64,000 nt of DNA. Source: Cyanidioschyzon merolae (lineage: Eukaryota). The notes under the pieces are model-generated. The model had not been told where the DNA came from and made no database searches. It was given only the letters and a program-made list of their open reading frames with translations. A program made the translations under genes and the position numbers. The stretch lies in assembly GCA_000091205.1 (NCBI GenBank), contig AP006500.2. The stretch is one strand, 5' to 3'. This document shows, in pieces, positions 1,327-19,499 of this stretch; position 1 is the first letter of the stretch; the number at the start of each line of letters is the position of its first letter.

Positions 1327-2982
1327 ATGGAGCGCGATTTGGTCGGCAGGGGCGCCGCACTTGAATGCAGTTTGCGGCGAGCGCTTCAGAGGCAAATGCC
1401 GGAAGAGCACGTCTTCTTTCTGGCGGAAAGGCTTTGTGCGGAAAAGTCGACTGCGGAGAGCTTTGCGCTTTATGCTCAGGCTCTTGCGCAGTACGGCCGA
1501 CATCGGCAGGCAGTCGACGTTGTGGCGAAGTACTGGCAGCAGGATCTTGAGTGTAGGTACTGGTACGCACTCTGCTGCATTGAGGCTAATGAGTTGGCTG
1601 CCGCCTACAAGGCGCTATCTTTCCTGCTTCAGGAGAACGCGAACGAGAACCTTACCAAGGAGGTTCGCTCGTCCCTTAACAACGCTCGGGGTCTCCCGTC
1701 CGAGAGAAGCCTGTCTGTGCCATGGCAGGCGGAGGGACTATATCTACTAGGGCGTGTGTTTCGCCTCTCGAACACGCGCGTTGACCAGGCTGCTCAGTGT
1801 TTCCGACGAGCGCTTGAAATTGATCCGTTTCTTTGGTGCTGCATCGAGGAGCTCAGCTCCCTCTATCGATATATAGATTATTTCGTACCGGAAATGTTTG
1901 GTATCTCTGGAAAAGAAGAGCAAGTCTTCCAATCAGGACGAAGCTCTCTTCGGCTGGACAACTGCATTTTGCGCTGGAAGACGAGATCCTCGGGCTCGCC
2001 TCAGGATAACTTTCAGGCCTTGGCCACCGTGCGTGCACTCGTTGAAGGATACCATTGCCGAGAGGCGGTCGCTCTAATTGCGACGTTGCCATTGGCGCTT
2101 CAGCAAGCACCCGTGGTGCTCAAATGGCAGGGTCGTGCATATCTTGATGCCGGTGAGCTATCCGAGTGTGCGCGAACGTTTGAAAAGTACCTGAGTTTGA
2201 ACAGATCTGGATCCTTGGATGGCCTCGAATACTACTCGACGGCGCTCTGGCATATGCGGCGGGATGTTGAATTAAATGCACTGGCCCGGTATGCACTTGA
2301 ACGAGACCGCTTCTCTGCAGCAACCTGGTGCATTGTGGGTAATGCGTTCAGTTTGCAACGAGACACAGACAGCGCTATCGAGTTCTTCCTCCGTGCCGCC
2401 CAGATTGATCCGCGAAATCCGTACCCCTGTACGCTAGCGGGTCATGAGTATCTTTATTTGGACAATTACGATGCCGCTATGAGATGTTACCAGGACGCGC
2501 TCTACAGGAACAGTCGACATTATAATGCCTGGTTCGGCATCGGACAAGTCTATCAACGGCAAGAGAAATTCCGTCTAGCGGAAAAACACTATCGAATAGC
2601 CCTCGATTTGAACTCGAATAATTCCATGTTGTGGTATTATCTGGGCCATGTTATCCGCGTCGGCGGAGGCCGCGAGGTCGATGCACTGAACGCTCTGGAG
2701 AAGGCTTTGGAAATGAACCCTCGCAATCCGGTGGCGCGTTTCGAGTGCTGCAAACTATATATGCAGATAGGCCGCTTACAGGATGCCTGGAAAGAGCTGT
2801 ACCAGCTCCGGAATATGGTGCCCCGTGAAGCAGCTATCTACTACCAGATGGGTGTCATCGCTCGCGAACTGGGTCTTAAGAATGCCGTAGAGCTGTTTAG
2901 CATCGCTCTCGATCTGGATCCGAAACAACCGCTATATAGGCAGGCGCTCTTATCGCTAGACGAGACGCAAAGTGCGCCGTAG
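1327..2982 (+). CDS. CDC27: Anaphase-promoting complex subunit CDC27/APC3 (TPR repeat protein)
   Basis: 551-aa ORF with ATG start; C-terminal TPR block AWFGIGQVYQRQEKFRLAEKHYRIALDLNSNNSMLWYYLGHV...NPRNPVARFECCKLYMQIGRLQDAWKEL...VPREAAIYYQMGVI matches the conserved CDC27 C-terminal TPR array (AWYGLGMIYYKQEKFSLAEMHF...). Confidence 0.8.
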   Translation: MERDLVGRGAALECSLRRALQRQMPEEHVFFLAERLCAEKSTAESFALYAQALAQYGRHRQAVDVVAKYWQQDLECRYWYALCCIEANELAAAYKALSFLLQENANENLTKEVRSSLNNARGLPSERSLSVPWQAEGLYLLGRVFRLSNTRVDQAAQCFRRALEIDPFLWCCIEELSSLYRYIDYFVPEMFGISGKEEQVFQSGRSSLRLDNCILRWKTRSSGSPQDNFQALATVRALVEGYHCREAVALIATLPLALQQAPVVLKWQGRAYLDAGELSECARTFEKYLSLNRSGSLDGLEYYSTALWHMRRDVELNALARYALERDRFSAATWCIVGNAFSLQRDTDSAIEFFLRAAQIDPRNPYPCTLAGHEYLYLDNYDAAMRCYQDALYRNSRHYNAWFGIGQVYQRQEKFRLAEKHYRIALDLNSNNSMLWYYLGHVIRVGGGREVDALNALEKALEMNPRNPVARFECCKLYMQIGRLQDAWKELYQLRNMVPREAAIYYQMGVIARELGLKNAVELFSIALDLDPKQPLYRQALLSLDETQSAP

Positions 2983-4075
2983 TGGCCAACAGCGCCCGCG
3001 GTATATATGCGAACGAAACGGCGAATAGAGACCCTACAGGCTGTCGTACGAGTAAGTCGCCAGCTGTCCATGCGGTAAGCGCCAGTTGACACCTCGGGGC
3101 TATTTCGATTCCGCACCCGCAGACATTGATCCGTCTGTATTGGACCGGATGTCAAACCGGTAGCATGGGAGCTAGGATTTTCGATACGGACGCGACGGCA
3201 ATCGCATGTTAGTCTGAGCGTTGCTCCGCTTGTGCGAGCTCTCGAGACAGACTCGGATACGAGAGCTGGTACCCGTCTGCGATGGACCCGCTTGGACTGC
3301 TACCTTGCACCGGCGCTCGCGGGAGATAGGAAACTAGAATCCTATCTTTCTGTCAAAACCTTCCTGGAATTCCCTTGGGGTGCTTGATTCTATTCAGCGT
3401 TCTTCAGTCTGGAACTGGCGGGTGCCAAAGTGTTGCTGTTATTCTGATAGTTTCACTCATGCAGCAAAGGCGAAGGCCCTCTCGAAGACGCAGCAATGCT
3501 CCGCGCTTGCCGTCTGGGCGCTGATCTCTCCCCCCTCCATTCTAGACAATTACCGATGCTCTTGGGATTCGCTCTGGCCATCGCTTCTCGCGGGGCCAGC
3601 TCAGGGCTTGAACGACAGCGCGGCCTCAGCAAGTTGGGTTATTCTCGTGAAGGCAAGTCGGTTGATTGCATGCTGCACGCGCTACTATTCCGTACGGCAG
3701 AACGAGCGTTCTAAACCAGCGCCTACGGGTCGCCTTTCGAACGCTGCAATTCCTCTCTGGTGACCTGACAGGAGGGCTCACCCAAGATCTCGCTTGCTCG
3801 TAGGGCTCTCAGGGCCGCGCCACTGAATACTGACGCAGCCCACTCCTGCAAACTTTGACGATACAGAACCTGCGGCCTTTGAGGCTTATGAAGCGTGCCC
3901 CGTGGGGCACGCATTCTGCATTTGCGTCGTGACTCCACAGCAGGGCAGCCGCCAATGCAAACAGCCCGTAACCATCGGGCTCGCGTGTGCGGCCTGTTAC
4001 CGCACGGTTAGCCTGTCACCAGGAGGCAAAAACACTTGTCAGGCTCAAAAGATGCATTGCAATCTTCATTTTGTT

Positions 4076-5452
4076 CCCGCCTTTCGATCGTTTCCCGAAT
4101 GTTCGCTAGAAACACAGCTGCAATATTCAAAGTGCAGCAATAACGGCGAATGGATTCATGGGTAGTTCTATGCCCCTCGGTTGTACTATCCGTAGGGATC
4201 CCGTCGACTCCCTGCCGCTGGCATTCGATACGTCACCGGGATCAAGATGGTTCGTGACGCCCTCATACGCGGGTTCGTAACATAGCCGATATCATCATCT
4301 CATTCAGTCGCACGCGCCTGCACTCTTCTGTTTTCCTCAAGTATAGCATGCTTGAATCATGCATTCTTCAAGTTTTCGATATTTCTCCTTAAAGGCAACT
4401 CGAGGGCGCAGCAATGCGTACAGCTGGGTGGACAGCGAAAAGAATCGCAACGACTTCACTTGAAGACTTTGTCACATGCTCATATCGAAGGCTGACTACA
4501 ATTGTCAGGTCAGCTAATCGCATCCGTCCGAGAAGGAAATCCGCCCGTCCTTGAGACAAGCGGCAACGTGGCGTTCACAGCCGGCGAGATAACGCTCACG
4601 GCATACGTCCCCAGAGGCTTCGCTCGCTTCCGTACACACCGAAGAAAATCGGAGACTCAGACCTGAGTTATCGCAGCGACCGCGCCAGATAGAGAGTCTG
4701 GCACCGCCTTGCACGGAGGAAGCGTAGACGGATCGAAGTTTTCTAGAATTGCGCTCCAGCCTGCATTTTTGCCTCGCGGTACATGGTTCACCACGAAAAG
4801 CTTCCCGTTCCACGAATCCTCCATCGAATGCGACACTGTGCACTGGCTTGCGCTGGCTTGCACTGGCTTGCGCTGGCATTGCCCCGCACTGCCTCGAGCC
4901 GACGCCCTCTGTGTGGTACGGCAACGCCGTTCTGCCTCCGTGCAGCGACCGCACTGGCGCTATAGGCGTCATTGCTGTCGCTTTCGGCAGGCACTAGGCA
5001 CACACGATAGGACGTATGAAACGACTAGAATATCCGGGAAGTAGTGTGGGTCATGGAACTTGGAGGCAGGGCGTTCGATGGCTACTTCACCGCACACAAA
5101 CAAAAAGAAAACAAAAAGTGCACAATCGGAGAACGCTGGCCTAAGTAAGCATTTTGTCAGTGAGAAAAATCCGACACTGTGTTCGCTGAGGGCATTGCGC
5201 TGATGCAACCTGCCAGCGAAGCGCACGGCAGCGAGCCCGCAAACTGAGAAGAGCATCGTGGTAAGCCTTCGATACTCGTCAATTGCATGGAACGAGCGAA
5301 AACGCGAGCTGTACGACGCCTCAAAACGGCCCTCCGAGGAAGAGGAGCAGGAGCAGGAGAGGCTTTGGTGGATATACGGGAACACCTGACCACAGCCAAA
5401 AGTCATCGATGCGAGGACGCACAGAGGCTGTATACAATGAAGATGAAAATGG
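4076..5452. repeat. Direct repeat copy R1 (1377 bp), >99% identical to 14734-16110
   Basis: Identical ORF translations (4514-4972 = 15172-15630; 4969-5406 vs 15627-16064, 1 aa difference) and direct sequence comparison; boundaries where identity stops (left ...ctttcgatcgtttcccg; right ...gaaaatggcaagcgaa). Contains the microrepeat cactggcttgcgctggcttgcactggcttgcgctggc (4845-4881). Confidence 0.85.
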
Positions 5453-6360
5453 CAAGCGAAGCGCAGGCTGCAACAACCGTCCGCGCAACAAGTGCGTCGA
5501 CAACTACCGAACGCAGTAAAATCGGGACTTTACCACCACCGCCATCAATATCCTGCGACTGCCGAAAACCTAGCCAGAGAAGATAGGAACAGGAAGCAGT
5601 CACAGAAAAAGCCCGCACACGCTAGTCTCGATGCCAGCTCGAAGACATCCAGCCGTTCAGATTCGCACTCGAGCGCGCAGCGAGCACCGCAGCGTATACC
5701 TAGCGGACACGTATGTCGGACCCGATCCAACTGGAGGCCCCTGTGCGCTGCTTCGTTGCTGGCGGGCAACGCGCAAGCACGCGCGCGGCGCCGTTGACCG
5801 CGAGATCGACGGCGGGTATCTCACGCGTTGCGCGAGCGGCTGTATGCGATGGCGCGCGCATCTGCAAACGCCGCCTCTGAAAATATCTGAGGAGCGGGGC
5901 GTACACGCGGCGCCGAGCGTCGCGTCTCGAGAACGTTTCGCGGGCGATCCTGCGGCGAAGGCGCGCTTCGTCTCGACATCGCTAGATGCTGTGCGCTGCA
6001 TTATCGAATGCAGCTGCGCGTCAGCGGTGATATCTTGTAGCTGCAGTGCTGTGACGTGAGCGACCAGTTGCTCGATATTTGCGTGAGACTTCGAATCAGC
6101 GCTATAATATCATAGTTGTGGAGGTTGACGGCTTCTTTGACTGGTTCGAGGGGTGAGCGACTACATCTACTAGAAGCAGTGAGCAAAGTCCGGACGGCGG
6201 CGGCGGCGGCTTCTAGAACCTCGGTACGCTGAGGGTTTGGCACGCGCAGGCGCAACCGAGCTCGAGAACGCAACTCCTGGGGCGAATTTGTGCCAAACTT
6301 TTTAGGTTGTTTTCTTGAGTTTAGTTCGTCTGTGGGCGGCTAGAGTGTCGGCGCGGTACG

Positions 6361-8370
6361 TTGCCGCGTGCCTGCTGGCGTGACGTGGTCATGAAACGGC
6401 GTCCAGATAATATTGCGCTCGCCGGTCGTACAGACGCCGAGCCTGGCAATCAGATGGACGCAACGAAGCAGAGACTGACTAATCGCCCTTCCGGTACGAA
6501 TACCGACCGGTTCGTAGGCCCGGAGACCCAGCAGCATTACTCCGCTTTGACGACATACCCGCAGGTGACGCCAGCGGCTGCATGCTGGGGCAGGGTGGCT
6601 GCCCCGGGTTACGCGGGCGCTGGTTCCATGCAGGCACAATCCAACAGTTACCCCTGGACATCGAGCTATCGTCCGCTTATGCTCCATGGGTATCACTTTC
6701 CAATAGGGCCTCTGCCGCATTCGGGTCCACGTGGTGCTGGTGCGACTTCGGTGACGGCTTTTGGAGTGCCTGCTAGCGCGAGGGCACCCCAAGCGCCGGC
6801 GTCAGGCTTTCATGGATCACTGCAGCACGCTGTGGATCGCTGGGATCCAGTTCCGGTGCAGCCACCGACTAGAGAGGCGTTGTACCAGCAAGAACTATTC
6901 TATCAGTCTGCTCAGTTGTTCGGAATGACGCCGAGACACATAACGGGGACTGAACACACCCGCGGTTGGCCCGTTGCAGTGAATGCGGAGTTTTACAAAG
7001 CAGCGCATCCTGGGCAAATACCGGTGCCTCATAATATCCCATCGTCAGCTGAAGCGTGTTGCGCAAGACCTCATGACGGAGCGTTGAATTGCTTACACGC
7101 TTTGGCCGCAATCTCCTCACAGGCGGCTACCAGCCTTTGTGGCGTGGGAATGGCCCGCCCAAATACCGGCGCGCAGCAGTCCGAGAGAGCGACTGCATCA
7201 TGCCCAGCTGAAAGAGCGCAGAACCGAATGGAGAACCCGCAATGTTGCAACGTTCCAGCGGACTGTTCAATGCCTATGCATACCTCTTCAAACGAAGGCA
7301 TCCCAGCATGCCTGGAGCACCGTCCTCGCCCGGAGTTCTACCCCGGTAAAACGGACGGCACGCGCCCCGGTCATGTGCAGGTTTCAGAGGGCAACATGAG
7401 TATGGTGAGCTTGGATGCCTCGTCGCATACGAATCAATCGATGTCGCTGCCTACTGCGCTTAGCAGCCGCTTTAGGACTGGATACCAGGGACCGTGGATG
7501 CAAACGGTCCCAGAAACCAATGCACACTGGGAGCGAATGAGTCGAGACAGTAGTGGAACGAGCGCCCGCGCGATGCCAAGCGACGCTGCAAGTCAGACCG
7601 GATTGGATCGTTCTTCGAGCGGCGATGATGACGCAGCTTCGCTTGCGGGTGGCGAGCATCTGCAGCGTATGTCCGGAGACAATCCCTGGACTGCCGCAAG
7701 CGCATCACCGACAGCAGGCGATGCTGCCGAGAGATCGATCTTACACAGAAACGTAGGTCTCGCTGGTGGCGGTGCAGCGTCGTCAGACCCCACGGCGGAC
7801 TTTTACAGGGATGGTGCGAGTTCACAGGCTACAGGGCATGTGGCGGGACTGCCAAGCAACGCTGCAGGCCCCGTCGAAGCTCCAGATCGGCGGTTTCAGG
7901 TGCCTCACACGTCGTTCCCCGCGGGTGCGATAAGATGGGTCCAGACGCTCCCTGCGTTGCAACTGGATCAGAGCTCCAATGGTGTTCTTCTAGGCGGGAG
8001 ATTCGTAGCGTCGGAAAACACCGACCATGGCATGGATCGAATACCGCTGACCATCGAGCACCCGCGCTGTGCAATAACGGACCACGCCGATCGAGTCGCT
8101 GCTGTCGGTGCAGCACCTGACACCGCAGCAAAGTCACCGACCTGGAGTGCCACTGAACGAGAGCGCTATCGCTTGGAGCGTGTGCAGCGCTTCCTCGAGA
8201 AGCGCCGCCGTCGCGTAGCGCATCCCGGCTTGATCCGCTACGACGTACGCAAGCGCCTCGCAGATGCACGACCCCGGGTACGCGGCCGCTTCGCGCGACC
8301 TGAAACCGTTGCTGCTGCTACTGCTGTTGCTGCTGCGCCTGCCACGACGAAGGCGCCGACTCCCCCCTGA
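6361..8370 (+). CDS. CCT-motif (CONSTANS/CO-like/TOC1-type) domain protein; first ATG probably at 6391
   Basis: C-terminal RERYRLERVQRFLEKRRRRVAHPGLIRYDVRKRLADARPRVRGRFARP (about 8158-8300) is a canonical CCT motif (R-x5-RY-x-EK-x3-R-x3-K-x2-RY-x2-RK-x2-A-x2-RPR-x-KGRFxK). Rest of protein low complexity; no B-box or receiver domain recognised. ORF starts at TTG. Confidence 0.55.
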   Translation: MPRACWRDVVMKRRPDNIALAGRTDAEPGNQMDATKQRLTNRPSGTNTDRFVGPETQQHYSALTTYPQVTPAAACWGRVAAPGYAGAGSMQAQSNSYPWTSSYRPLMLHGYHFPIGPLPHSGPRGAGATSVTAFGVPASARAPQAPASGFHGSLQHAVDRWDPVPVQPPTREALYQQELFYQSAQLFGMTPRHITGTEHTRGWPVAVNAEFYKAAHPGQIPVPHNIPSSAEACCARPHDGALNCLHALAAISSQAATSLCGVGMARPNTGAQQSERATASCPAERAQNRMENPQCCNVPADCSMPMHTSSNEGIPACLEHRPRPEFYPGKTDGTRPGHVQVSEGNMSMVSLDASSHTNQSMSLPTALSSRFRTGYQGPWMQTVPETNAHWERMSRDSSGTSARAMPSDAASQTGLDRSSSGDDDAASLAGGEHLQRMSGDNPWTAASASPTAGDAAERSILHRNVGLAGGGAASSDPTADFYRDGASSQATGHVAGLPSNAAGPVEAPDRRFQVPHTSFPAGAIRWVQTLPALQLDQSSNGVLLGGRFVASENTDHGMDRIPLTIEHPRCAITDHADRVAAVGAAPDTAAKSPTWSATERERYRLERVQRFLEKRRRRVAHPGLIRYDVRKRLADARPRVRGRFARPETVAAATAVAAAPATTKAPTPP

Positions 8371-8807
8371 GCATGAATAAGCATGCTTTACGCTGTTGAC
8401 ACTATACATTGGGTGTGTGTGTGTTTGTGTGTGAAATCATGTTGGCGTTCTGCGTATATCGAGAGGCACGAAGAACTCATGATACACGCTCGCTGCGACT
8501 CCGAGCATGATCCTTACGGACGTTGCTGTCATTGCAGTAGATGCTGTTGGTCACACATTGTTACCATCATCGCGTACGAAACAAGAGCAAAGCGCACGCT
8601 GTCTCAGTGGGTTACACGCACCACGTACAGCAATGGACACGTGTCCAGAATACCGCTGTGTACACGCATAGACGCATGTATCGACACAGGCATGCGTGCT
8701 CGTGATCCGTGCCCAACACCGATCGGGGCATGCAAGGCTGGCGTTACGAAACGCAGCATTGAACGGGAGCGCGACCTGGCCCAGTCACGTACCGTGCATG
8801 AGGCGAC

Positions 8808-11800
8808 TCAGCGCGTGTGCGTTTGTCGACGTGCCCGCCCCGCAGCACGTGGGTTCCGCTCCGCTGTCGCTGCTGTTGCTGTTGCGGATGCTGGTGAGGC
8901 TTGAGGGAATCCTCCTGCGGTGACGCCTTCGGAGCGTTTCTTCATTGACGCTTCTAATTCCAAGACCTCGGAGCTAAAGCAACCAGTTGCGCGACCTCGA
9001 CGTTTTGAAGGCGATGCGATCGAGGCAGTGCGGAGATTCCATGTGCTGCTCGCACTCGATGTCGTTGTTGCGCTGCTGCTGGAACTGTTGCTTGCGGAGC
9101 TGCAATTGCTTGATGGCTCGAGTTGCAGACGTTGAGCCGGGGCTCGTTTTCCAGTGTTCTGGAGGTTTTGCACGCAAGGGTGCGCGCCTCCGGGCGCACC
9201 TTCGCGGTTGGCGAAGGTTGGTGCCATGGCAGCTGCTCCAGTGCTCTCCAGACGCGCAAGAATGTGCTTTCCATAGGAGAAGCGTTTGATGACGTTCAGA
9301 TTCGCACGAAGAAGCTCCGCCGCTTGCTGACGTTGTTCGTCGCCGGCTACATCCAGGACTCGCTGCACGACATAATTTCCGAATTGGTCCTGGACAAGAT
9401 CTATCAGAGGCACGCTGTTGCGGGGTAACGCAGTTGCGCCAGAACTACCACCACCACCGCTGCCACTGCCAGCAACATCAGATCGGCCCAGGAGAATATC
9501 GATGAGGGCTTTGCGATCCGCTGGGGAGCCATGTTGCAGACATCGCTCGACAACGTTACTCGCGTACTTGTGTTGACTCATGCTAATACACTGATCCCTG
9601 ACCATGCGGAGAATATGCGCACGCTCTTCCTCCTTTCCATGCTCGACAACGTGCTGGATGACATAGTTACCGTATTGGTCCCGAATGAGGGTTCGGCACG
9701 CCTGCATAATCTCGCGCATGATCGGGACTTTTTGCTCCTCTGGTGAATATTCTAAAATGCGCTGTATAACCCGGCATCCATAGGAATGTTCAGCAAGCGA
9801 GACGGCCTGGCCCCGAACCGCGTCCACGATAAACTGAACGTGTTGTCCTGGAACTCGTTCGATGCATTTCTGGATCACATGATTGCCATTCTGATCACGG
9901 ATACACTTCAACACGTGTCCGTCGAGTTCGATCACGAGTTCCGCCTGCGTACTAGCAGGCAAGACTTCGAGTGCCTTCTGTACAGCCCTGCAACCATACA
10001 TGTGGAGTGAGAGCGCTAGGATCCGGTTTTTCAATTTCATCGCGATTGCCTGTAGGTCACGTGCTGTGCCGTGCTCCAAGAGTTTTTGCACGACGTAGTT
10101 GCCAAAGACATCCGTCACCAGGCGATTCATTTCTGCGAGCACTTCCTGCAGCACCCACCCAACCTGATCAGGAGTTGCAGTCTCCAACTTGGTCTGAATG
10201 AAGCGCGAGCCATGCTGATCCGTGCTGAACTCCACGATTTGACCACGAATATCCTCCAGTTTCCAGGAAGTGAACGCCTCGTCCGACGCAAGCAAGGCTG
10301 TCCGGAAGCGCTCCAGGAGAGCCGAGCGCCCAACGGACGCTATGACTCCGCTATTTGGCGGATTAGCGGCATCTGGACTCGAGAGGGTGCCACTAGTACC
10401 CAAATCCAGTGACGGAAAGTGTAGCGGTGACCTCGGGGGGGCCCCTGTCGGTGGAACCGTTGCCGGTGGAGCAGCGGCAGTCTGCAGAAAGCCGCCGACA
10501 CGCACTTGCCCGCTGTACGAGTCTGTGAGTATCGGTGCGACGCTCACGAACGGGGCGCGCAGTTGAGCCACACCACTAGAATGCCCCATCTGGGTTGTTG
10601 GTTCTCGTCGAGGAGCTCTTGCTGCTGCTGCTGCTGCCGGTATCGGATTTGCACCAGCGGGGCCAACACTCCCTGGCACGGCGGGCCTGCCACCATTTTC
10701 TTCGGATACAAAAGAAGAAGAAGACGCCGACGACGGCCTCGGTGATGTCGTTTGCGCTCCATAGGCTGCGGGTTCTGCTGAAAGACAAGATTCCGGAATC
10801 GAAGCATCAGCCAAGTTCCCATGTTTTGCGCTCCGCATTCGCATGGCATCTTCTGTGGCATGTGCACAAACGAAGCGGCATCCGCTCGGAATGACCGGGG
10901 GAAACGATACGCAATGGTCCGGAACCAAGGAAAACATTGACGACTCGTTAGCATCCTCGCTGCCAGAGGCAACCAAAGTGCTCTCTTTCCGAACAGATGC
11001 AGCACGACCCTGTGGACAAGCGATTCCCGACGGCAGCTGTGCAGCAGGGTGCCAGGAATACACGGGTGTTGCTCGTCGATCCGCAAGCTCCACCTCAGTG
11101 CACAAGCCCGCTTGTTCGCTGCCGTTCAAAACGATCTGATCTGGATGAATCCAGATGCTTTCTTCGAGCGGTTGCGTCGCACCTGGTGATGGCGATATGA
11201 GCGGAAGCGCCTGCGAGAGATGCGCGCCGGCCGCGTTCGCAACTTGCAGAGGCCTAGGGCTCGTAGCTGAATAGCCTGGACACAGACGTCGACCGTTGTG
11301 GCATTCGTAGTGCTCGAAAGTGCCTTCGACGAGCGAACTCTGCCTGCTCGGTGAAAGTCTATGGGTCCTATTGGCGTTGGGATCGATCTGAGGCCGCCCA
11401 GTCTCAGATACGGAAGTTGTTCCACTGCCAATCATTTGGGAGTCCACCCGACACTGGTTGTCAGGCTCTGAAACACCGTCAGCGGGGCTCTCCAAGCAAC
11501 AGCGGGCTGTTCGCTGCTCCTGGACACAGGTTTCCGGGCTCGGTTGTGATTCCGTGACTGGGATATTCAACGGAGGGCGGCTTGCCCATTGCAGTGTGGA
11601 TTCGAGACGTGCAGCCGCATCTCGACGACCACACGAGGATTCCTCACTGTTCTGGCTCTTTCCATTGGTGACATGACCCACGTAACCAGGGGAGCTCGCT
11701 GCGCGTTCTCGACGGTTCGGGACCCGCTGTTCATGTTCTTCGTTACCGTTGGTATCCAAACCGTCCCCCTTTTTCCCAGTGCATATTTGACGGTCATCGG

Positions 11801-13328
11801 CGGAGCGTTCTTTCGGTGCTCGGGGCTGATGATTGAGCACAGCGGGATACCCGCTGTTCGGCGCCTGCACCGTGGCAGGACTACTCCAGGATCTGGTGCA
11901 CACAGTACCGCTCTGAGCGCTCTGGTATGCCGCTGATGCATTGTACAGCGGTGATGCGCCACAGCCTCCTGCCCAGCGCATCAGGCTCGGATCGGAAGCC
12001 ACGATTGATGGGTTATTAGCCATTGGTAACGACGACGAACTCGAGGAGACCGATGACGCGGAAACCGGTGCTCGAGGCGAACGAGCATAGCCATTCAACG
12101 TGTTGATGCCTGACAATGCCGTCGTTGCACGCTGCTGATCCCAGGCGTCTTCGCATGACTTCCACGAAGCGGCCCCGGACACAGGTCCCGACCACGCAGA
12201 ACGGGAGCTTCCAAACGCGCGACCGCTCACGACAGATCCCCCTTCTAGCCCAGACACGGAACTGTACTGACTCGCACTTCGAGCTCGCACCGGTGACGAC
12301 ACTACCGAGGAGGACTCGAAGGCTGGGCTTGGCGTGCGCGCCACATCCGACCGTGCTATCTCTGAAATCGTGCGGTGCGGAATCGGTGCCCAGAGCCTTG
12401 AGTAGGCGCCCTCCGCAGCCGACGGTGTGGTCCTTCCAGTACACGTCAGTGGACCAGCCAGGGGCTGCTGTTCACTCGGCGAGGAACAACACGCCGCAGG
12501 CTGCCATACCCGCGGGCAGGGCGCCACTCCCCAGCCTTGAGGAGTTGCAGTGCGTAAATCGCTTTGGAAAGCGGCTGATCCGCTCTCAGAGCCTGCGGAA
12601 AGAGCTGACTGCTGTGCACGCCACCAGTCCGCCTGCTCTGGACGGCTTTGAAACGTCCACTGGGTCGGTGCACGCCTCAATGGCGGGGCGCTCTGAATAG
12701 ATAAATTTGAAAACCTCTCCAGTGTTGTCTGGTCCTTTTCTGTCCAGTCCCTTTGTAGGACACGGGGTCCACGTAATGGATCCGTCTGCGACCCGTAGCC
12801 ACGGAGCATCTCGTTGCGCCGGGTGTCGGCTCCCAGCTGATGGGAGCCAGAAGCAACTTTCCAACTCGCAAGGCGATCCGAAGACATCTGATTCGGCGTG
12901 GACAGCTCTCCAGGATCAGAATACTGCGCGTCGTTGGAGCCGGAAACACGTCCCGGTGACGGTACTGAACAAAAACCCGGACATCCCCAAATCGTCGAAG
13001 CATACATAGAGTTCTTGCCCGCATCTTCCCCGGATCCACCGATGCGCTCGGATGCTGCACTCCAAATATCTTCGCCTGTTGCCACTCCCAAAAGCGATGC
13101 ACCGCGTCCAAACTCCACCTTCTTCCGGAACTGACCCGGAGGCGGCGCGCTGGCCACTCGGGGCGGCTGTTCGTTTTCCAACGCCGCTTCAAAACCGACC
13201 GGAAGTGTCATCTGAGGCGACACAGCACTTCCGCTAACCGTACCAACGCGCACACGAGCCGCGTCGTCTTGCGCGGGCGCCGCCCTGGCTCGAGCATCGA
13301 CGCCGGTCCAATTGCGTTGCGTGCCCAT
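8808..13328 (-). CDS. Pumilio-family (PUF) RNA-binding protein, 1506 aa, long low-complexity N-terminal region
   Basis: Eight PUF repeats near the C-terminus (about nt 9130-10210): FGNYVVQKLLEHGT, MYGCRAVQKALE, DQNGNHVIQKCIE, SYGCRVIQRILE, DQYGNYVIQHVVEHG, HKYASNVVERCL, DQFGNYVVQRVLD. ATG start at 13328..13326. Confidence 0.85.
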   Translation of the reverse strand: MGTQRNWTGVDARARAAPAQDDAARVRVGTVSGSAVSPQMTLPVGFEAALENEQPPRVASAPPPGQFRKKVEFGRGASLLGVATGEDIWSAASERIGGSGEDAGKNSMYASTIWGCPGFCSVPSPGRVSGSNDAQYSDPGELSTPNQMSSDRLASWKVASGSHQLGADTRRNEMLRGYGSQTDPLRGPRVLQRDWTEKDQTTLERFSNLSIQSAPPLRRAPTQWTFQSRPEQADWWRAQQSALSAGSESGSAAFQSDLRTATPQGWGVAPCPRVWQPAACCSSPSEQQPLAGPLTCTGRTTPSAAEGAYSRLWAPIPHRTISEIARSDVARTPSPAFESSSVVSSPVRARSASQYSSVSGLEGGSVVSGRAFGSSRSAWSGPVSGAASWKSCEDAWDQQRATTALSGINTLNGYARSPRAPVSASSVSSSSSSLPMANNPSIVASDPSLMRWAGGCGASPLYNASAAYQSAQSGTVCTRSWSSPATVQAPNSGYPAVLNHQPRAPKERSADDRQICTGKKGDGLDTNGNEEHEQRVPNRRERAASSPGYVGHVTNGKSQNSEESSCGRRDAAARLESTLQWASRPPLNIPVTESQPSPETCVQEQRTARCCLESPADGVSEPDNQCRVDSQMIGSGTTSVSETGRPQIDPNANRTHRLSPSRQSSLVEGTFEHYECHNGRRLCPGYSATSPRPLQVANAAGAHLSQALPLISPSPGATQPLEESIWIHPDQIVLNGSEQAGLCTEVELADRRATPVYSWHPAAQLPSGIACPQGRAASVRKESTLVASGSEDANESSMFSLVPDHCVSFPPVIPSGCRFVCAHATEDAMRMRSAKHGNLADASIPESCLSAEPAAYGAQTTSPRPSSASSSSFVSEENGGRPAVPGSVGPAGANPIPAAAAAARAPRREPTTQMGHSSGVAQLRAPFVSVAPILTDSYSGQVRVGGFLQTAAAPPATVPPTGAPPRSPLHFPSLDLGTSGTLSSPDAANPPNSGVIASVGRSALLERFRTALLASDEAFTSWKLEDIRGQIVEFSTDQHGSRFIQTKLETATPDQVGWVLQEVLAEMNRLVTDVFGNYVVQKLLEHGTARDLQAIAMKLKNRILALSLHMYGCRAVQKALEVLPASTQAELVIELDGHVLKCIRDQNGNHVIQKCIERVPGQHVQFIVDAVRGQAVSLAEHSYGCRVIQRILEYSPEEQKVPIMREIMQACRTLIRDQYGNYVIQHVVEHGKEEERAHILRMVRDQCISMSQHKYASNVVERCLQHGSPADRKALIDILLGRSDVAGSGSGGGGSSGATALPRNSVPLIDLVQDQFGNYVVQRVLDVAGDEQRQQAAELLRANLNVIKRFSYGKHILARLESTGAAAMAPTFANREGAPGGAHPCVQNLQNTGKRAPAQRLQLEPSSNCSSASNSSSSSATTTSSASSTWNLRTASIASPSKRRGRATGCFSSEVLELEASMKKRSEGVTAGGFPQASPASATATAATAERNPRAAGRARRQTHTR
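10619..10638. repeat. (GCT)6 microsatellite inside the Pumilio CDS
   Basis: gctgctgctgctgctgcc read directly. Confidence 0.7.
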
Positions 13329-13892
13329 CCTGCTCCCTCGCCAGCGTCGTGTGTCGACGGCAAGGAGTACTCAAGAACCTCGAAACGCACCCGAACCGCA
13401 ACACAAAACCGGCAATCACGACACGCTTGCACTAGCTATCGTAAGCACTGGAAGCTCCTGAGCTGTTTCAGTCTCCCCGTTTTGCAAGCCCCAATGAACT
13501 ACAAACCAAAGCGCACCAGCAGTTTATCTCCAAGCCACAAACTGACAAAACTGCTGCCCCGAACGAGCCACAGACACTATACCAATAACAACCCGCCGTG
13601 TGGACTTTCAGAAAACAAGCCCGGCAACAAAAACTATTGCCGCGGCTTCAACCAGTTGCAAGCCAATGCGTCGATAGATAATTAGCAACGCTTGTTGCGT
13701 CGTCCGCCGTCGCTGCAGCCGCGTTGCCCGCTGGATCGCGCAGATCGCGCCCATCCCCGTTGCTGTTGCGCTTTTCTTTAAGGCTGCGACGGCGCGCGTG
13801 CGCTCGTGCACCGCGTGGAGGCTCCCCGGGCGCTGCTGTTGCTGCCGCGCGCTTTAAACCAAACAGACACGCCCTCGACGACGGGGACGGCG

Positions 13893-13912
13893 ATGGATGT
13901 CACATGTGACAT
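13893..13912. repeat. Perfect 20-bp palindrome GGATGTCACATGTGACATCC, about 565 bp upstream of the Pumilio start codon
   Basis: Read directly; self-complementary around a central CACATGTG core. Function unknown (possible regulatory site or hairpin). Confidence 0.4.
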
Positions 13913-14733
13913 CCGGCGAGACCGCATGAGTGGCGCTGCGCTCCCGCGTCCGCGACGTGCCGTGGTGCGAGCGCGGGGCGCGATCGGAATGGGAAATTGG
14001 ATAATGCAGACAATGCGGACAGGCTGCGCGGGCGTCGATTTCTTGCTGATCCCGTGGCGACGCGTGCGGGTTGTGTGGAAACGGCAGCGGGCAGTCATGC
14101 CGTGCACCGCATGCCGTCGCTCGGTGTTGGCCATGGCGGGGCGGTGGCGCACGCGCTCCTCATTGATAGGGGATTCGCGGTGGTAGAAGACTCGGACTGG
14201 GTGTTATGCTGGAGTGCCCAGTTTGAAGTCACCTGCCTGAAAGTGCGTCTTCGCTCGAAAACTGCGAATTCCGAAGGTGTTTCTGGTGCCTAGATGTCCA
14301 ATCAGCAGTGGTTACGATGGAGCTCAGTTTCTGAGTGACCTGGTGCGCTGACGGTAGCGTGACGTCGCTGCATTTGGGCCTCGGCCATGGTCTCTTCGAA
14401 GCGCAAACCTCCTTTATGACTGCGTAAGCCAGTCTGTTTGAAAAGATGTGTGGAATCCGTTTACCTCCACGGTCCACAGGATGAAAGACGCTGATATACC
14501 CACTTGATGTTTGACATTGCGGTACAAGACAGACAATCGCAGTTGCCTTGCTCCGAGGCTGCATAGTCGGTGTGCACGGTGTCGTCCGTGGGAATTTATC
14601 ATGATGCACTGATTGCGACAAATATCGCTGCGGCTTATTGGTACACGCGGATGAACAAAATGCAGCTACTTGGCCCCAAGCTCTGCTGAACCCATTTCGG
14701 ATAAAAATGGAACACTGAAATGCTCGTAGTGTT

Positions 14734-16110
14734 ATTTTCTTTCGATCGTTTCCCGAATGTTCGCTAGAAACACAGCTGCAATATTCAAAGTGCAGCAATA
14801 ACGGCGAATGGATTCATGGGTAGTTCTATGCCCCTCGGTTGTACTATCCGTGGGGATCCCGTCGACTCCCTGCCGCTGGCATTCGATACGTCACCGGGAT
14901 CAAGATGGTTCGTGACGCCCTCATACGCGGGTTCGTAACATAGCCGATATCATCATCTCATTCAGTCGCACGCGCCTGCACTCTTCTGTTTTCCTCAAGT
15001 ATAGCATGCTTGAATCATGCATTCTTCAAGTTTTCGATATTTCTCCTTAAAGGCAACTCGAGGGCGCAGCAATGCGTACAGCTGGGTGGACAGCGAAAAG
15101 AATCGCAACGACTTCACTTGAAGACTTTGTCACATGCTCATATCGAAGGCTGACTACAATTGTCAGGTCAGCTAATCGCATCCGTCCGAGAAGGAAATCC
15201 GCCCGTCCTTGAGACAAGCGGCAACGTGGCGTTCACAGCCGGCGAGATAACGCTCACGGCATACGTCCCCAGAGGCTTCGCTCGCTTCCGTACACACCGA
15301 AGAAAATCGGAGACTCAGACCTGAGTTATCGCAGCGACCGCGCCAGATAGAGAGTCTGGCACCGCCTTGCACGGAGGAAGCGTAGACGGATCGAAGTTTT
15401 CTAGAATTGCGCTCCAGCCTGCATTTTTGCCTCGCGGTACATGGTTCACCACGAAAAGCTTCCCGTTCCACGAATCCTCCATCGAATGCGACACTGTGCA
15501 CTGGCTTGCGCTGGCTTGCACTGGCTTGCGCTGGCATTGCCCCGCACTGCCTCGAGCCGACGCCCTCTGTGTGGTACGGCAACGCCGTTCTGCCTCCGTG
15601 CAGCGACCGCACTGGCGCTATAGGCGTCATTGCTGTCGCTTTCGGCAGGCACTAGGCACACACGATAGGACGTATGAAACGACTAGAATATCCGGGAAGT
15701 AGTGTGGGTCATGGAACTTGGAGGCAGGGCGTTCGATGGCTACTTCACCGCACACAAACAAAAAGAAAACAAAAAGTGCACAATCGGAGAACGCTGGCCT
15801 AAGTAAGCATTTTGTCAGTGAGAAAAATCCGACACTGTGTTCGCTGAGGGCATTGCGCTGATGCAACCTGCCAGCGAAGCGCACGGCAGCGAGCCCGCAA
15901 ACTGAGAAGAGCATCGTGGTAAGCCTTCGATACTCGTCAATTGCCTGGAACGAGCGAAAACGCGAGCTGTACGACGCCTCAAAACGGCCCTCCGAGGAAG
16001 AGGAGCAGGAGCAGGAGAGGCTTTGGTGGATATACGGGAACACCTGACCACAGCCAAAAGTCATCGATGCGAGGACGCACAGAGGCTGTATACAATGAAG
16101 ATGAAAATGG
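14734..16110. repeat. Direct repeat copy R2 (1377 bp), >99% identical to 4076-5452
   Basis: See R1; a few single-base differences (e.g. 4183 a vs 14841 g; 5284 a vs 15942 c). Confidence 0.85.
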
Positions 16111-16814
16111 CAAGCGAAATATGCATCGAAACATCTGCATGCGCATGAAATGTGTTGAAAACCACTGGAAGCAGCAAAACAGGGGCTTTAAATCTGCAGT
16201 GAACATCTTCCGATCGCTAATGATGGAGCTGGAAGGAACGGAGACACCGTCGTATCTCAAGTCGGAGCTCGAAGAGAAGGAAGAAAATCAGCCGCGAAAA
16301 AGCCCTTAATGCCTGTTGCTGACGGCAATTGGAGGATACCTAAAATTCAGTATTCACGTTCGAGGTAGAATAGTGTATCCGTTTCATTTTATTCTGAGAG
16401 AGGTCTAGCTCATGGCAGCTATAGAAAATGACTCACTGACTGGCTGCCACTTGCGATGAAGAGCTTGCATAGCAGGTTCTTTTCTAGATCGCAACACCTA
16501 CTGCAGGACCAGAGCTTGGGACAGTATCGTGAATAAGTGTTGTGCTTTGAGAAAGCGGCTGCACGGGCTCTGTACCAGAACGACAAGCGCGGTGAGCCCG
16601 CTACGCTGAAGATGCATTCGCGTTCGAAGCAGCGGCACACACAAGTGCGGTGCTGTCGCCCGCTAGCGCTGGGAGCGCTCCGCAAGCACACTCTTGAGGG
16701 CAACTTTCCCATCACGAGTCGAGTACTTTCACGCTTGCACAGTTCTAGAGCCGCGAGAGGCAGCACGCACAACTTCGTGGCCGCTGAAGCAGACGGCGCT
16801 CCTCGAGTTCGAAG

Positions 16815-19499
16815 ATGCTTGCCGGGTTCTCAGACGTTTTCTGCTCTCCTCTTAGCCAATCGCCCGCGCACAGAACGTTTAGAGAGCGTGCTGCACTCGA
16901 CACGTCCCGACGGCGCCCCAGAAGTATACGTCGCATAAAGGCTTGTGCAGAGCCGTTATCGGATCACCCGAGGAGACCTTTTTATCGCTTCCACGCCCCG
17001 TCATGGTACGGGCCTTTGCGCCACTTCCCACCGGGTCCAGTACATCCCATGGACTTGTATGGAAGGCCATCGTCCTTATCCATAGAAGATGATCGGGAAA
17101 TTCGCCCCGGTTTGAAAGGAGACTCTGACTTTGATGTCGCGATGCGGTACTGTGAGCATCATCCGCTAGCGCCTATGCGGATCCTCGCGGATGCCCTGGA
17201 AAATGCTCCCGACGCACAGCGCATTCCAGAATGGCCGCAATACCTCCAGTGGTTTGACTGTGATGAGCGAACGGGTGATGTACGTAGCATCTATGCACCT
17301 TTGCATCCCGCGGAATCAGAAAGCATCACGGTGTTGCAGTTCTTTACAACGGAGAATACTGACTGTTGGTTTGGTCACCGATTTTGGCGACATGCGCAGC
17401 TAGTATGCCGGGAATATCCAGCAGTTCGCTTCGTTCGCATTCTCGCAGAAAAGTATGAGGCAGTCCGCGAGAAACTCACTAGAGAGCGAACGGAGCAGAG
17501 GCTGAACGAAAGGCTCGGGGAACGGCCACCGATGCCGAGCAAGCGATCCCTGCACAGCACTTTGGAGCGCGAACGGCTTGACGGTGTCGTTGCAGTGGAT
17601 TCCGAGCGTCTAGATTTTTTTCGGACTGTAGGCGCGATCGGGTGGCCGTTTTGTGTGGTGCTCGCCCCCACAGGCACGCTAGTCGCAAAGTGGTATCAGG
17701 GGAGTCTCTGTGGCGGCCTCGCTCTAGATGAGAACAATGGCCATGTATTCTTGTTGGATATCATCCTAGCAGGAGCTATGGATTACTATGCCACACAATT
17801 GCGTTCCGGCCTTCATCCCGGACAGTTTTCATTGTTGAATGATCCACAAAGGCCGCCTGTGTTCCCTGAGGAGCCGCCAAAACCCATTGGACACCAGCTT
17901 GTGCCACGCTCACCCAAGAAGCAGGCTCAAGAGATGCTGGACAAATCTGAGGCGCTGAGGCTTCGGTACCCTTCCAAAGTGATCGTATTTCGTAGGGTGG
18001 AGCCACTAGCGTCAGCAGTGCGCTCGCCAGACTCCGGGCAGCATCATTCCCTGTGTGACATAGATGACTCGACTGTAACGTCGCGCACTTACATGGTCAT
18101 CGCCGATACGAACAACGATCGAGTGGTTTGGTGCCTCTTGGACGAATCCGGTGCCATACCGAAACTCGATCTACGGCACAACGGAACGGTTGAGGGTCTG
18201 CGACGGCCCCGGGGAATTTGCTACGATCACACGCACGATCTTGTCTACCTTGCTGACACAGAAAATCATCGAATATGTCGTTTCCGAGTACCACAATTCG
18301 CGATGCCGAATCCCGGAACACCGTATCCCGTCGAGTGGATTGCGGGAACTGGTGCTGCAAAATTTGACCTTTTCGGTACCCGAAGAGCGCGCCACCAGTC
18401 GCTGGTCTTTCCCTGGGACGTGGCCGTGGGACCGCGCTTTCGCTTCACTCCGACTGCGCCCTTGGATGAGGCGAACTCAGCCGCACCCTTGGGTTCGCCG
18501 GACCGCAGCCCCGCCTCCCATGCCGTATACGTCACGAACGCTGGTTTGAATCAGCTCTGGCAGATTGATTTCTTCGCGAAACAAACCGCCCCAGATACGA
18601 TGCATCCTGAGCCGCGCTCCTGCCGAGCGGTTTGCGGTAGCGGTGATCATCGCCAACTGGATATCACGAGCGCAGACAACGAACGCTTGCGAATAGAGCC
18701 CAAACGTTCGTGCTGTTTTGTATCGAGTATGGCTCAACCGACTGGTCTCGCACTAATTCCAGAGAGCTGTGCTGGCGATGGCGACACGAAGGGACCCTTT
18801 ATCGCCTTTATCGATGCTGAGTCGAGTTCGGTGCGTTACTTTGCGCCGAGATCACGCAGTCTGTGCACACTGGCTGGAGGCGGCTCAGCAACAGGTGACA
18901 TCGATGACCTCTTTGAGTACGGGTATTTGGATCATGCGTCTGGAAAGAACGCAAGATTTCAGCACCCGCTGGGTATCACGTACGATTCGTCACGTCGAGC
19001 GCTCTTCGTGGCTGACACCTATAACAATTGCATCCGCTGTGTAGACTGGTCGACTGGTGCAGTAGATACAGTGCACCTTGTTCCCGCCGATCCAGCAGCG
19101 ACAGAACTTTTAGTCGACATGGATCAACGTGGAAAGGTAACGCAAGACGATGCGATACCGTTCTGTTTGAACGAACCAACAGGTGTGGAGGCGGATCCAG
19201 AGGCTTTTCAGGGACGAGGCGCGCTCTGGATTGCAGACACGAACGCGCACCGTATTCTCTGTGTCGAGTGGTTACCGAGTGCATCGAGCGAGGACTCGAA
19301 GGAATCGATGGATGACGAGCAGCTTGCTCAGAAGCAAACGCCCAAGCAGCGCGGAGATCAACGGCAAAGGTTGAAGCTTTCGCGGGTCACGCTCTGGGGG
19401 CGTGTGCATGTTGTTTGGGATGATGCCCTTCTAGAGCAGGCCGCTCACTTGGGGCAGCGTGCACGAGCGGGCATCGTTGAGGCTCAGCCCCGAACCTGA
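16815..19499 (+). CDS. NHL-repeat protein resembling NHLRC2 (N-terminal thioredoxin-like region followed by NHL beta-propeller repeats)
   Basis: Repeated NHL-type motifs LVYLADTENHRICRF, YVTNAGLNQLWQIDF, ALFVADTYNNCIRCVD, ALWIADTNAHRILCVE; N-terminal region with VVLAPTGTLVAKW-type thioredoxin-like segment; ATG start at 16815. Confidence 0.65.
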   Translation: MLAGFSDVFCSPLSQSPAHRTFRERAALDTSRRRPRSIRRIKACAEPLSDHPRRPFYRFHAPSWYGPLRHFPPGPVHPMDLYGRPSSLSIEDDREIRPGLKGDSDFDVAMRYCEHHPLAPMRILADALENAPDAQRIPEWPQYLQWFDCDERTGDVRSIYAPLHPAESESITVLQFFTTENTDCWFGHRFWRHAQLVCREYPAVRFVRILAEKYEAVREKLTRERTEQRLNERLGERPPMPSKRSLHSTLERERLDGVVAVDSERLDFFRTVGAIGWPFCVVLAPTGTLVAKWYQGSLCGGLALDENNGHVFLLDIILAGAMDYYATQLRSGLHPGQFSLLNDPQRPPVFPEEPPKPIGHQLVPRSPKKQAQEMLDKSEALRLRYPSKVIVFRRVEPLASAVRSPDSGQHHSLCDIDDSTVTSRTYMVIADTNNDRVVWCLLDESGAIPKLDLRHNGTVEGLRRPRGICYDHTHDLVYLADTENHRICRFRVPQFAMPNPGTPYPVEWIAGTGAAKFDLFGTRRARHQSLVFPWDVAVGPRFRFTPTAPLDEANSAAPLGSPDRSPASHAVYVTNAGLNQLWQIDFFAKQTAPDTMHPEPRSCRAVCGSGDHRQLDITSADNERLRIEPKRSCCFVSSMAQPTGLALIPESCAGDGDTKGPFIAFIDAESSSVRYFAPRSRSLCTLAGGGSATGDIDDLFEYGYLDHASGKNARFQHPLGITYDSSRRALFVADTYNNCIRCVDWSTGAVDTVHLVPADPAATELLVDMDQRGKVTQDDAIPFCLNEPTGVEADPEAFQGRGALWIADTNAHRILCVEWLPSASSEDSKESMDDEQLAQKQTPKQRGDQRQRLKLSRVTLWGRVHVVWDDALLEQAAHLGQRARAGIVEAQPRT

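Follow-up and report, generated by a model that had tools for sequence, protein, structure and literature searches.

Two near-identical direct repeats (R1 and R2) that bracket a pair of regulatory genes on chromosome 18 of Cyanidioschyzon merolae 10D are probably two old copies of a dispersed repeat family that were homogenized by ectopic (non-allelic) gene conversion. The analysis covered a stretch of 64,000 nucleotides (the window), in which R1 and R2 lie on the same strand at an offset of 10658 bp, with 99.855% identity, no indels, and two mismatches in the base-by-base comparison (A at 4194 versus G at 14852, and A at 5287 versus C at 15945; Table 1). This agrees with the initial annotation of near-identical direct repeats differing at a handful of positions, although the coordinates given there (4076-5452 and 14734-16110, 1377 bp), while correct in their offset, were shifted by 5-8 bp. 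Identity stopped abruptly at both edges (5 mismatches before 4081 and 9 consecutive mismatches after 5460), and a match of such length cannot have originated by chance. Comparison with metagenome contigs showed that each copy in 10D carries one of these two changes, both of them derived and private to 10D.

Table 1. Features of the R1/R2 locus and of the related repeats in the window
Feature	Coordinates	Strand	Description	Basis
R1 core	4081..5460	+	1380 bp, 99.86% identical to R2 (putative converted tract)	BLAST self-comparison, base-by-base comparison
R2 core	14739..16118	+	1380 bp, 99.86% identical to R1	BLAST self-comparison, base-by-base comparison
Full old family element around R1	4037..5563	+	Extends 44 bp left and ~100 bp right beyond the core	R-free HMM, alignments
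Full old family element around R2	14662..16219	+	Extends 77 bp left and ~100 bp right beyond the core	R-free HMM, alignments
Diverged family copy	20244..21397	-	Intergenic, without module	nhmmer, family HMM
Diverged family copy	30710..31869	-	Intergenic, without module	nhmmer, family HMM
Diverged family copy	42752..43928	-	Intergenic, without module	nhmmer, family HMM
Nested module in R1	4854..5168	+	~315 bp, second short interspersed repeat	Family-HMM gap (4853-5169), alignments
Nested module in R2	15512..15826	+		Family-HMM gap, alignments, TRF
Solo module copy	40853..41185	-		nhmmer, alignment
Partial solo module copy	50277..50487	-		nhmmer, alignment
cdc27/APC3 TPR protein	1327..2982	+	Left neighbour, BAM82592.1	Pfam, 10D annotation
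CMR408C	4969..5406	-	145-aa ORF inside R1, 10D hypothetical protein BAM82593.1	Exact match
CCT-motif protein CMR409C	6391..8370 (ORF from 6361/6391)	+	Interior	PF06203
Pumilio-family RNA-binding protein	8808..13328	-	Interior	PF00806 (eight hits)
NHL-repeat protein	16815..19499	+	Right neighbour	Start at 17049 in metagenome gene calls

A dispersed, non-coding repeat family containing R1 and R2

Sequence comparisons within the window indicate that R1 and R2 are members of an old dispersed non-coding family, represented by at least five copies of ~1.2 kb with 55-62% mutual identity that are located within 44 kb of chromosome 18. A nhmmer search with R as the query returned three further copies in the window (E ~1e-40), each lacking R positions ~772-1092, and a family HMM recovered exactly five copies. 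The diverged copies are 1154-1177 bp long, and with the nested module the family element reaches 1.5 kb. Identity to R is 55-61% for the copy at 20244-21397. Boundaries of the full elements around R1 and R2 were determined with nhmmer, using an HMM built from the three diverged copies only (R1 and R2 left out), plus alignments. When the flanks alone were compared with this R-free HMM, family likeness was detected for R2 left (E = 5e-6), R1 right (E = 4e-4), and R2 right (E = 0.04), and the left flank of R1 showed no significant likeness. Outside the core, R1 and R2 share 50% (44 bp) and 58% (78 bp) identity, which is the level of unrelated family members, compared with 99.7-99.9% inside it. 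An in-register alignment of their right flanks scored 23 (versus 11.2 ± 1.2 for shuffled sequences, z ~10), and the right tract end falls within the 25-bp block that is best conserved in the family. A larger duplicated unit was rejected, as in-register identity dropped to chance level past 44-77 bp of left flank and ~100 bp of right flank. Two 224-aa ORFs beside other family copies were also considered as shared duplicated sequence, and proved to be unrelated.

Searches for family copies beyond the window gave chance hits only in a motif scan of prokaryotic genomes and none in viral contigs, and a k-mer scan of metagenomes returned only the R1/R2 locus. The initial annotation had named many copies behaving as a simple interspersed repeat as an outcome that would refute its reading. 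This is half borne out, in that R belongs to an interspersed family, but its near-identical version was found at two sites only.

The family is non-coding, given that tblastx among the copies produced hits in all frames on both strands, the family alignment lacked 3-base codon periodicity, six repeat ORFs had no Pfam hit at E ≤1, the repeat contained no RNA gene according to Rfam (gathering and E-value thresholds) and no tRNA according to ARAGORN, and RNAalifold identified no conserved fold in the best conserved block. Protein searches with both repeat ORFs of annotated size retrieved nothing beyond the clusters of these ORFs and other module copies. One annotated ORF, CMR408C (CYME_CMR408C), spans the nested module and the right arm of R1. 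It is probably a spurious ORF rather than a gene, because it had no Pfam hit, its only relatives in protein searches were ORFs over other module copies, and the family shows no codon periodicity.

The R family is reminiscent of the WSV repeat of C. merolae, a 253-copy interspersed element with a mean length of 3.2 kb and a truncated ORF weakly similar to WSSV WSV486 (Nozaki et al. 2007, PMC1955436). Both are interspersed, specific to the C. merolae lineage, without known function, and carry annotated internal ORFs. The R family differs in being 1.15-1.2 kb long with sharp ends, as its homology stops at defined ends rather than extending over ~3.2 kb, and its lack of a conserved ORF argues against membership in the WSV repeat.

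Evidence for a probable ectopic gene conversion

Each of the two cores contains the nested module, which opens in R1 with a 10-bp microsatellite (TGCACTGGCT, 4.3 copies at 4839-4882 according to TRF). Solo copies of the module occur elsewhere in the window (Table 1), and further ones were found in L018 (another contig) and P0107. Among the five family copies, the module and microsatellite are present only in R1 and R2, and hence represent a shared derived character. A 10-bp target-site duplication (TSD; CGACACTGTG) around the module was ambiguous, with a similar short internal repeat present there in the family, and is not claimed here.

Two hallmarks of gene conversion were found at this locus: a near-identical tract embedded in older homology that continues past both of its ends (50-58% identity outside, 99.9% inside), and derived characters common to both copies (module plus microsatellite). 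Moreover, the high-identity version of R was found only with the four flanks cdc27, CCT, PUF, and NHL among the contigs retrieved. Four positions (376, 715, 844, and 966) vary between strains and are the same in both copies of each genome or contig. As a signal of conversion after strain divergence this pattern is confounded and may reflect collapse, because assembly from short reads does not resolve which copy an interior variant of a 1.4-kb repeat belongs to, and all observed differences between R1 and R2 lie ≤175 bp from a repeat edge.

We infer the mechanism, direction, and timing of conversion as follows. A 1380-bp tract of one element would have been copied into the other, either once and fairly recently or repeatedly. 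The donor would already have held the ~315-bp nested module, which would have been co-converted with almost the whole element. Both ends of the tract fall within sequence homologous to the family, so that the margins of the elements (44-77 bp at the left, ~100 bp at the right) would have escaped conversion and retained family-typical divergence. Homologous recombination is very inefficient at only ~57% identity, and a one-off conversion would therefore require repair primed by short homology, unless the core was continuously homogenized.

Ectopic gene conversion and concerted evolution are known from Ty/delta elements in yeast and low-copy repeats in humans. The R1/R2 pair is similar to these in having a near-identical tract within older paralogous sequence, abrupt ends, and an apparently co-converted insertion, and in the location of both copies on one chromosome in direct orientation. 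It differs in that the family is very diverged (55-62%) and that homogenization involves only two of the five local copies; with partners this dissimilar, classical homologous recombination does not readily account for its start. Judged from sequence alone, ectopic conversion appears to be the best explanation for the pair, and would imply that non-allelic gene conversion acts in the C. merolae genome, making long perfect homologies. Of the two causes of the near-identity named in the initial annotation, gene conversion, whether recent or ongoing, is thus retained, but a fresh unit duplicated very recently is not supported, because outside the core the flanks show the divergence of unrelated family members.

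Alternative explanations for the near-identity

Assembly could have created the second copy by collapsing or duplicating a contig end, a possibility raised initially, and repeat-only metagenome contigs (L007, 1380 bp; L008; L026; L027) and contigs ending at repeat edges illustrate that assemblers struggle with this sequence. We nevertheless consider the chance of an artefact to be negligible. The window derives from 10D chromosome 18 of a finished, gap-free, BAC-supported Sanger genome, four window proteins are exact matches to proteins of 10D chromosome 18, and R1 and R2 can be told apart by two bases and by their flanks on either side. In addition, the junctions cdc27/R, R/CCT, PUF/R, and R/NHL were all recovered from at least six independent metagenome samples of natural relatives, which shows that the R1/R2 structure is present in natural populations. 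Two long direct repeats around a 9.3-kb segment are also what an LTR retrotransposon (or solo-LTR pair) or a composite transposon carrying the CCT and Pumilio genes would produce, with R1 and R2 as terminal repeats, and this resemblance had been pointed out previously. Yet the core starts with CTTTCG and ends with GCGAA rather than having TG..CA ends, and no terminal inverted repeats were found (best match between termini 20-24 of 60 bases, i.e., chance level). Checks for TSDs, which had been recommended, were negative at core and family boundaries alike: none flanked the whole unit outside 4081 and 16118 (TTCCCGC and ATATGCA) or the individual copies (CCCGC and GCGCA; ATTTT and ATATG), or occurred at the ends of the full family elements. 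Neither the repeats nor the interior encode gag/pol, an integrase, or a transposase, and the interior yielded only CCT (PF06203) and PUF (PF00806) in Pfam searches, confirming the earlier description of CCT-motif and Pumilio genes on opposite strands between the repeats. The gene order cdc27-CCT-Pumilio-NHL is identical in Cyanidiococcus, where the syntenic locus has no R-like sequence and no self-repeat; the recommended synteny comparison hence indicates a pair of host genes instead of a transposon-like cassette, and the transposon interpretation is refuted for practical purposes, with scarcely any probability remaining. Nozaki et al. 2007 likewise reported no LTR retrotransposons in the C. 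merolae genome (PMC1955436).

Near-identity could alternatively reflect insertion age, if a young 1380-bp mobile element or small segmental duplication had arrived at two sites. The sharp ends are compatible with this, and the family repeat DNA with a short interspersed element nested inside suggests that mobile DNA was involved. A young unit is nonetheless unlikely, as both copies sit in register within older elements whose homology continues beyond the ends at 50-58%, so that the unit would on two occasions have had to hit an old copy at exactly the corresponding position. R1 and R2 also lack TSDs, terminal inverted repeats, and coding capacity, and no third high-identity copy with other flanks was present among the retrieved contigs. 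Strong purifying selection is less probable still; it would require both copies to be functional, for example as non-coding RNA genes or regulatory modules located upstream of CCT and NHL. Each R copy does lie upstream of a + strand gene, and the family has a nearly constant length (1154-1177 bp) and conserved blocks in common. However, selection does not freeze the core, because it diverges between strains (0.14-0.36%) as fast as its neighbours do (0.04-1.8%), and selection would be unable to keep neutral-looking sequence the same in two paralogs at 1380 of 1380 positions. The absence of an Rfam hit and of a conserved fold in R also argues against an RNA function.

Possible recombination between R1 and R2

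In addition to being a probable product of gene conversion, R1 and R2 could plausibly recombine so as to delete or duplicate the CCT-Pumilio segment, in keeping with the initial proposal that recombination could excise or duplicate this cassette. Given the homology between the repeats and the very efficient homologous recombination in C. merolae, 1.38 kb of near-perfect homology around CCT and Pumilio could allow the 10.66-kb unit to be deleted as a circle or duplicated. Homologous recombination routinely pops out segments between direct repeats in C. merolae, and is exploited in engineered pop-out cassettes for recycling the URA5.3 marker (PMC8504449, PMC13353863). The natural locus parallels these cassettes in that direct repeats flank a segment predicted to be excised together with one repeat, in an organism whose homologous recombination is very efficient. 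It differs in that the repeats are natural, the interior comprises two probably useful genes, and the reciprocal deletion junction was in no contig retrieved.

Metagenome contigs L012, L025, and L036, from three samples, carry a PUF-side/R/CCT-side junction of the type expected from a circle or tandem duplication. L036 corresponds to exactly one turn of the circle, and closing it restores an intact Pumilio ORF. These contigs may be artefacts, as the reads are shorter than the repeat and the contigs are legal walks through an assembly-graph loop. We therefore regard it as very unlikely that the 10.66-kb unit (one repeat, CCT, and Pumilio) also exists in natural C. merolae populations as an extrachromosomal circle or tandem amplification generated by R1/R2 recombination; if it does, the locus would act as a naturally occurring, reversible switch controlling the dosage of two regulatory genes.

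C. merolae, which serves as the "simplest" photosynthetic eukaryote, is reputed to contain almost no repeats. Our results indicate that diverged non-coding dispersed families fill several of its intergenic spacers and may be under-annotated, although the R1/R2 locus represents ordinary biology and leaves the current understanding of genome biology unchanged. For strain engineering, primers or homology arms placed in 4081-5460 or 14739-16118 match two sites, and recombination could remove or duplicate the CCT/Pumilio segment. No mention of CMR407C-CMR410C was found in the literature, and these genes are absent from H3K27me3 supplements. For CCT and NHL alike, 931 bp separate the end of the core from the next ATG, which we judged to be a coincidence.

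Structure and gene content of the repeat locus

BLAST self-comparison of the window revealed a single long direct repeat, formed by R1 (4081-5460) and R2 (14739-16118), which share 99.855% identity over 1380 bp (2 mismatches, 0 gaps). Base-by-base comparison placed the mismatches at 4194 (A/G) and 5287 (A/C) and showed that the edges of this shared core are sharp, with 5 mismatches before 4081 and 9 consecutive mismatches after 5460. The initial annotation, which described 1377-bp repeats at 4076-5452 and 14734-16110, had the correct spacing (10658 bp) with positions off by 5-8 bp, and Pfam bore out its placement of CCT-motif and Pumilio (PUF) genes between the repeats. Four ORFs in the window match proteins encoded on chromosome 18 of strain 10D letter for letter (BAM82592.1, CMR409C BAM82594.1, CMR418C BAM82601.1, and CHL1 BAM82604.1). 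The ORF of CMR408C covers a short module nested in R1 together with the right arm of the repeat, and no relatives of it were found apart from ORFs lying across further copies of the module; hence, CMR408C is unlikely to be a genuine gene. Its R2 twin, one base different, has no database record. The distance from the core end to the next ATG is 931 bp on both occasions (5460-6391, CCT; 16118-17049, NHL, from a metagenome gene call), which looks like coincidence, as in-register identity over these stretches does not exceed chance.

Genes and repeat elements at the locus, with related copies elsewhere
Feature	Position	Strand	Basis or remark
cdc27/APC3 TPR protein (BAM82592.1)	left of repeats		Pfam
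Nested module in R1	4854-5168		second, shorter interspersed repeat; absent from the three diverged family copies
CMR408C, hypothetical protein, 145 aa, ORF within R1	4969-5406	-	exact match to annotation
CCT-motif protein CMR409C (BAM82594.1)	6361/6391-8370	+	Pfam; interior gene
Pumilio protein, eight repeats	8808-13328	-	Pfam; interior gene
NHL-repeat protein	right of repeats		Pfam
Diverged family copy	~20.2-21.4 kb (start 20244)	-	nhmmer
Diverged family copy	~30.7-31.9 kb (start 30710)	-	nhmmer
Diverged family copy	~42.8-43.9 kb (start 42752)	-	nhmmer
Solo module copy	40853-41185		
Solo module copy	50277-50487		
Solo module copy	contig L018 (another chromosome), upstream of TCP1 chaperonin gene		84-91% identity
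Solo module copy	beneath protein P0107		

The C. merolae genome is a finished one, obtained from Sanger shotgun reads with BAC-based gap closure (Nozaki et al. 2007, PMC1955436). Exact-protein look-up with two repeat ORFs retrieved ~25 contigs from JGI and ENA hot-spring metagenomes (98.6-99.8% identity to the window), of which three long ones carry both repeats arranged as in the window (Ga0078972_1002912, 53.9 kb; Ga0080006_1118312, 59.3 kb; Ga0504776_000574, 22 kb). Each of four distinct flanks is joined to the repeat in several independent samples, and no fifth flank was found among the retrieved contigs. Duplication of the repeat by assembly, raised initially as collapsed or duplicated contig ends, is therefore excluded, although the metagenomes support the junctions and not the exact identity of the interior. 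Repeat-only contigs (e.g., L007, exactly 1380 bp) and contigs stopping at the repeat edges both occur, showing that short-read assemblers treat the repeat as a repeat node.

A likeness to LTRs or a composite transposon had also been proposed. Neither the core nor the wider element has a target-site duplication, terminal inverted repeat, or TG..CA ends, and Pfam searches of six repeat ORFs gave no match even at E ≤1. Gene order (cdc27-CCT-Pumilio-NHL) is the same in Cyanidiococcus yangmingshanensis (Pumilio 64% identical), as a synteny comparison suggested in the initial annotation showed, and the matching spacers there (~1.8 and 2.4 kb vs ~3.4 and 3.5-3.7 kb in the window) contain no repeat-like sequence or self-repeat detectable by sensitive BLASTN, TBLASTX, or family HMM. 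Moreover, no LTR retrotransposons were reported in the C. merolae genome (Nozaki et al. 2007, PMC1955436). Both transposon readings thus fail, and CCT and Pumilio are ordinary resident genes. No RNA genes were detected in the repeat by Rfam (two thresholds) or ARAGORN.

A diverged repeat family and the case for gene conversion

An nhmmer search of the window with the repeat as query, R1 and R2 being masked, identified three further, opposite-strand copies (E ~1e-40 each), all missing repeat positions ~772-1092. Other copies, which the initial annotation proposed to look for, hence exist in diverged form, while the repeat itself was found with other flanks in no contig. A family HMM detected exactly five copies in the window; a 20-kb stretch of another chromosome (L018) and the Cyanidiococcus locus had none. 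In a MAFFT alignment, identity between copies is 55-62%, and their lengths vary little (1154-1177 bp). The family is non-coding: tblastx matches between copies are short, in all frames and on both strands, invariant columns lack 3-base periodicity (p = 0.4-0.9), no fold is conserved in the best conserved block, and all five copies are intergenic. It is distinguished from the C. merolae 'WSV repeat' (253 copies, average 3.2 kb, WSV486-like ORF; Nozaki et al. 2007, PMC1955436) by its shorter length and lack of an ORF. Copies start at 4037, 14662, and the three tabulated positions, each in its own spacer at intervals of roughly 5-12 kb; all lie within 44 kb of the window start, with none in the last 20 kb. 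The nested module begins with a 10-bp microsatellite.

An HMM built from the three diverged copies only, leaving out R1 and R2, aligned R1 over 4037-5563 and R2 over 14662-16219, past both core ends. Three flanks also matched this model by themselves (R2 left, E=5e-6; R1 right, E=4e-4; R2 right, E=0.04), and an in-register alignment of the two right flanks scores 23 (vs 11.2±1.2 for shuffles). In the outer parts beyond the core, identity between R1 and R2 is 50% and 58%, no more than unrelated family members show, vs 99.7-99.9% within it. The nested module is a derived character, found among family copies in R1 and R2 only. This pattern is the signature of ectopic gene conversion, the more likely of two causes suggested initially: because family homology extends past the core at 50-58% identity, old family copies occupied both sites first, and the 1380-bp inner tract, including the module, was probably made identical afterwards. 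The other cause, a very recent duplication of a new unit, accounts for the near-identical core and is disfavoured by the low identity of the outer parts; a fresh insertion would have to hit the matching point of an old copy on two occasions. On the right, the tract ends within the most conserved 25-bp family block (GAAGATGAAAATGGCAAGCGAAGCG), which would offer short identity islands between diverged copies.

Classical homologous recombination between 57%-identical sequences is very inefficient. Hence, either the core was long kept homogeneous as erosion proceeded at its edges, or repair primed by short homology acted in a single event. Among known phenomena, the nearest match is non-allelic gene conversion (concerted evolution) of dispersed repeats, with which the structural tests agree. 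The finding is real and largely explained by an ordinary process acting on diverged repeats of a model genome, a family not described so far; we found no paper mentioning this locus.

Strain variation and possible recombination between the repeats

Tract boundaries are common to all strains. Core divergence between 10D and the metagenome strains (0.14-0.36%) is similar to that of neighbouring regions (0.04-1.8%), so the core is not unusually constrained. The R1/R2 differences in 10D are two private derived changes, one per copy. Strains vary at core positions 376, 715, 844, and 966, with both copies alike in each contig, which at face value would indicate concerted evolution after the strains split. 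However, short-read assemblers cannot phase a 1.4-kb repeat interior, and every R1/R2 difference seen (positions 17, 114, and 1207) lies ≤175 bp from an edge. At positions 715 (4795/15453) and 966 (5046/15704), GG, GA, AG, and AA are all present across 10D and three metagenome contigs. Such a four-gamete pattern would imply that natural strains recombine, in line with recent work reporting a sexual cycle and a mating between 10D and a Yellowstone strain (PMC13353863).

DNA integrates in C. merolae via highly efficient homologous recombination, and intrachromosomal recombination is in routine use to pop out markers placed between directly repeated terminators (PMC8504449; PMC13353863). Occasional recombination across a 1.38-kb perfect direct repeat is therefore to be expected, with deletion or duplication of the 10.66-kb unit as the outcome. 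Among contigs spanning the repeat with flanks on both sides, four had the cdc27-R-CCT junction, six PUF-R-NHL, three PUF-R-CCT (circle or tandem duplication; L012, L025, and L036), and none cdc27-R-NHL (deletion). L036 (JGI 3300054705, Ga0556633_006493; 10,671 bp) contains exactly one unit (CCT, Pumilio, and one repeat) in circularly permuted order, and its ends overlap by 5 bp. Closing the contig restores the intact 1508-aa Pumilio ORF; it is a real circle, a tandem array, or an assembly-graph loop. The PUF-R-CCT contigs are suggestive and not evidence, since the locus forms a simple loop in a short-read assembly graph, where reads shorter than the repeat allow artefactual walks and cannot tell the chromosomal arrangement apart from a circle accompanied by a deletion chromosome. 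That the CCT-Pumilio cassette occurs naturally as a circle or a tandem amplification is, in our view, unlikely.

Other features of the window

CMR418C (34969-37032), a 687-aa protein without a clear Pfam domain, falls into the same 90%-identity cluster as CMH270C, which is encoded on chromosome 8 (739,753 bp). The pairing suggests a duplication between chromosomes, in a genome that reputedly contains few paralogs. At 23763-24475, identity to metagenome contigs L003 and L009 (and L030, 1053-3116) falls to 79%, with a gap, from ~99% around it. This drop lies within a 700-aa ORF (22425-24527, no Pfam match; gene calls of 713 aa vs 687 aa between strains), marking a putatively hypervariable or rearranged gene. 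A 75-bp tandem repeat (60841-61209, 4.9 copies, 81% identity) occurs inside a 458-aa minus-strand ORF (59921-61297, no Pfam match), and the surrounding 60-62 kb region is GC-poor (0.50), with both GC and AT skew strongly negative (-0.2). An imperfect palindrome of ~65 bp (53990-54054, 84% self-complementary) lies inside an 878-aa ORF (52156-54792).
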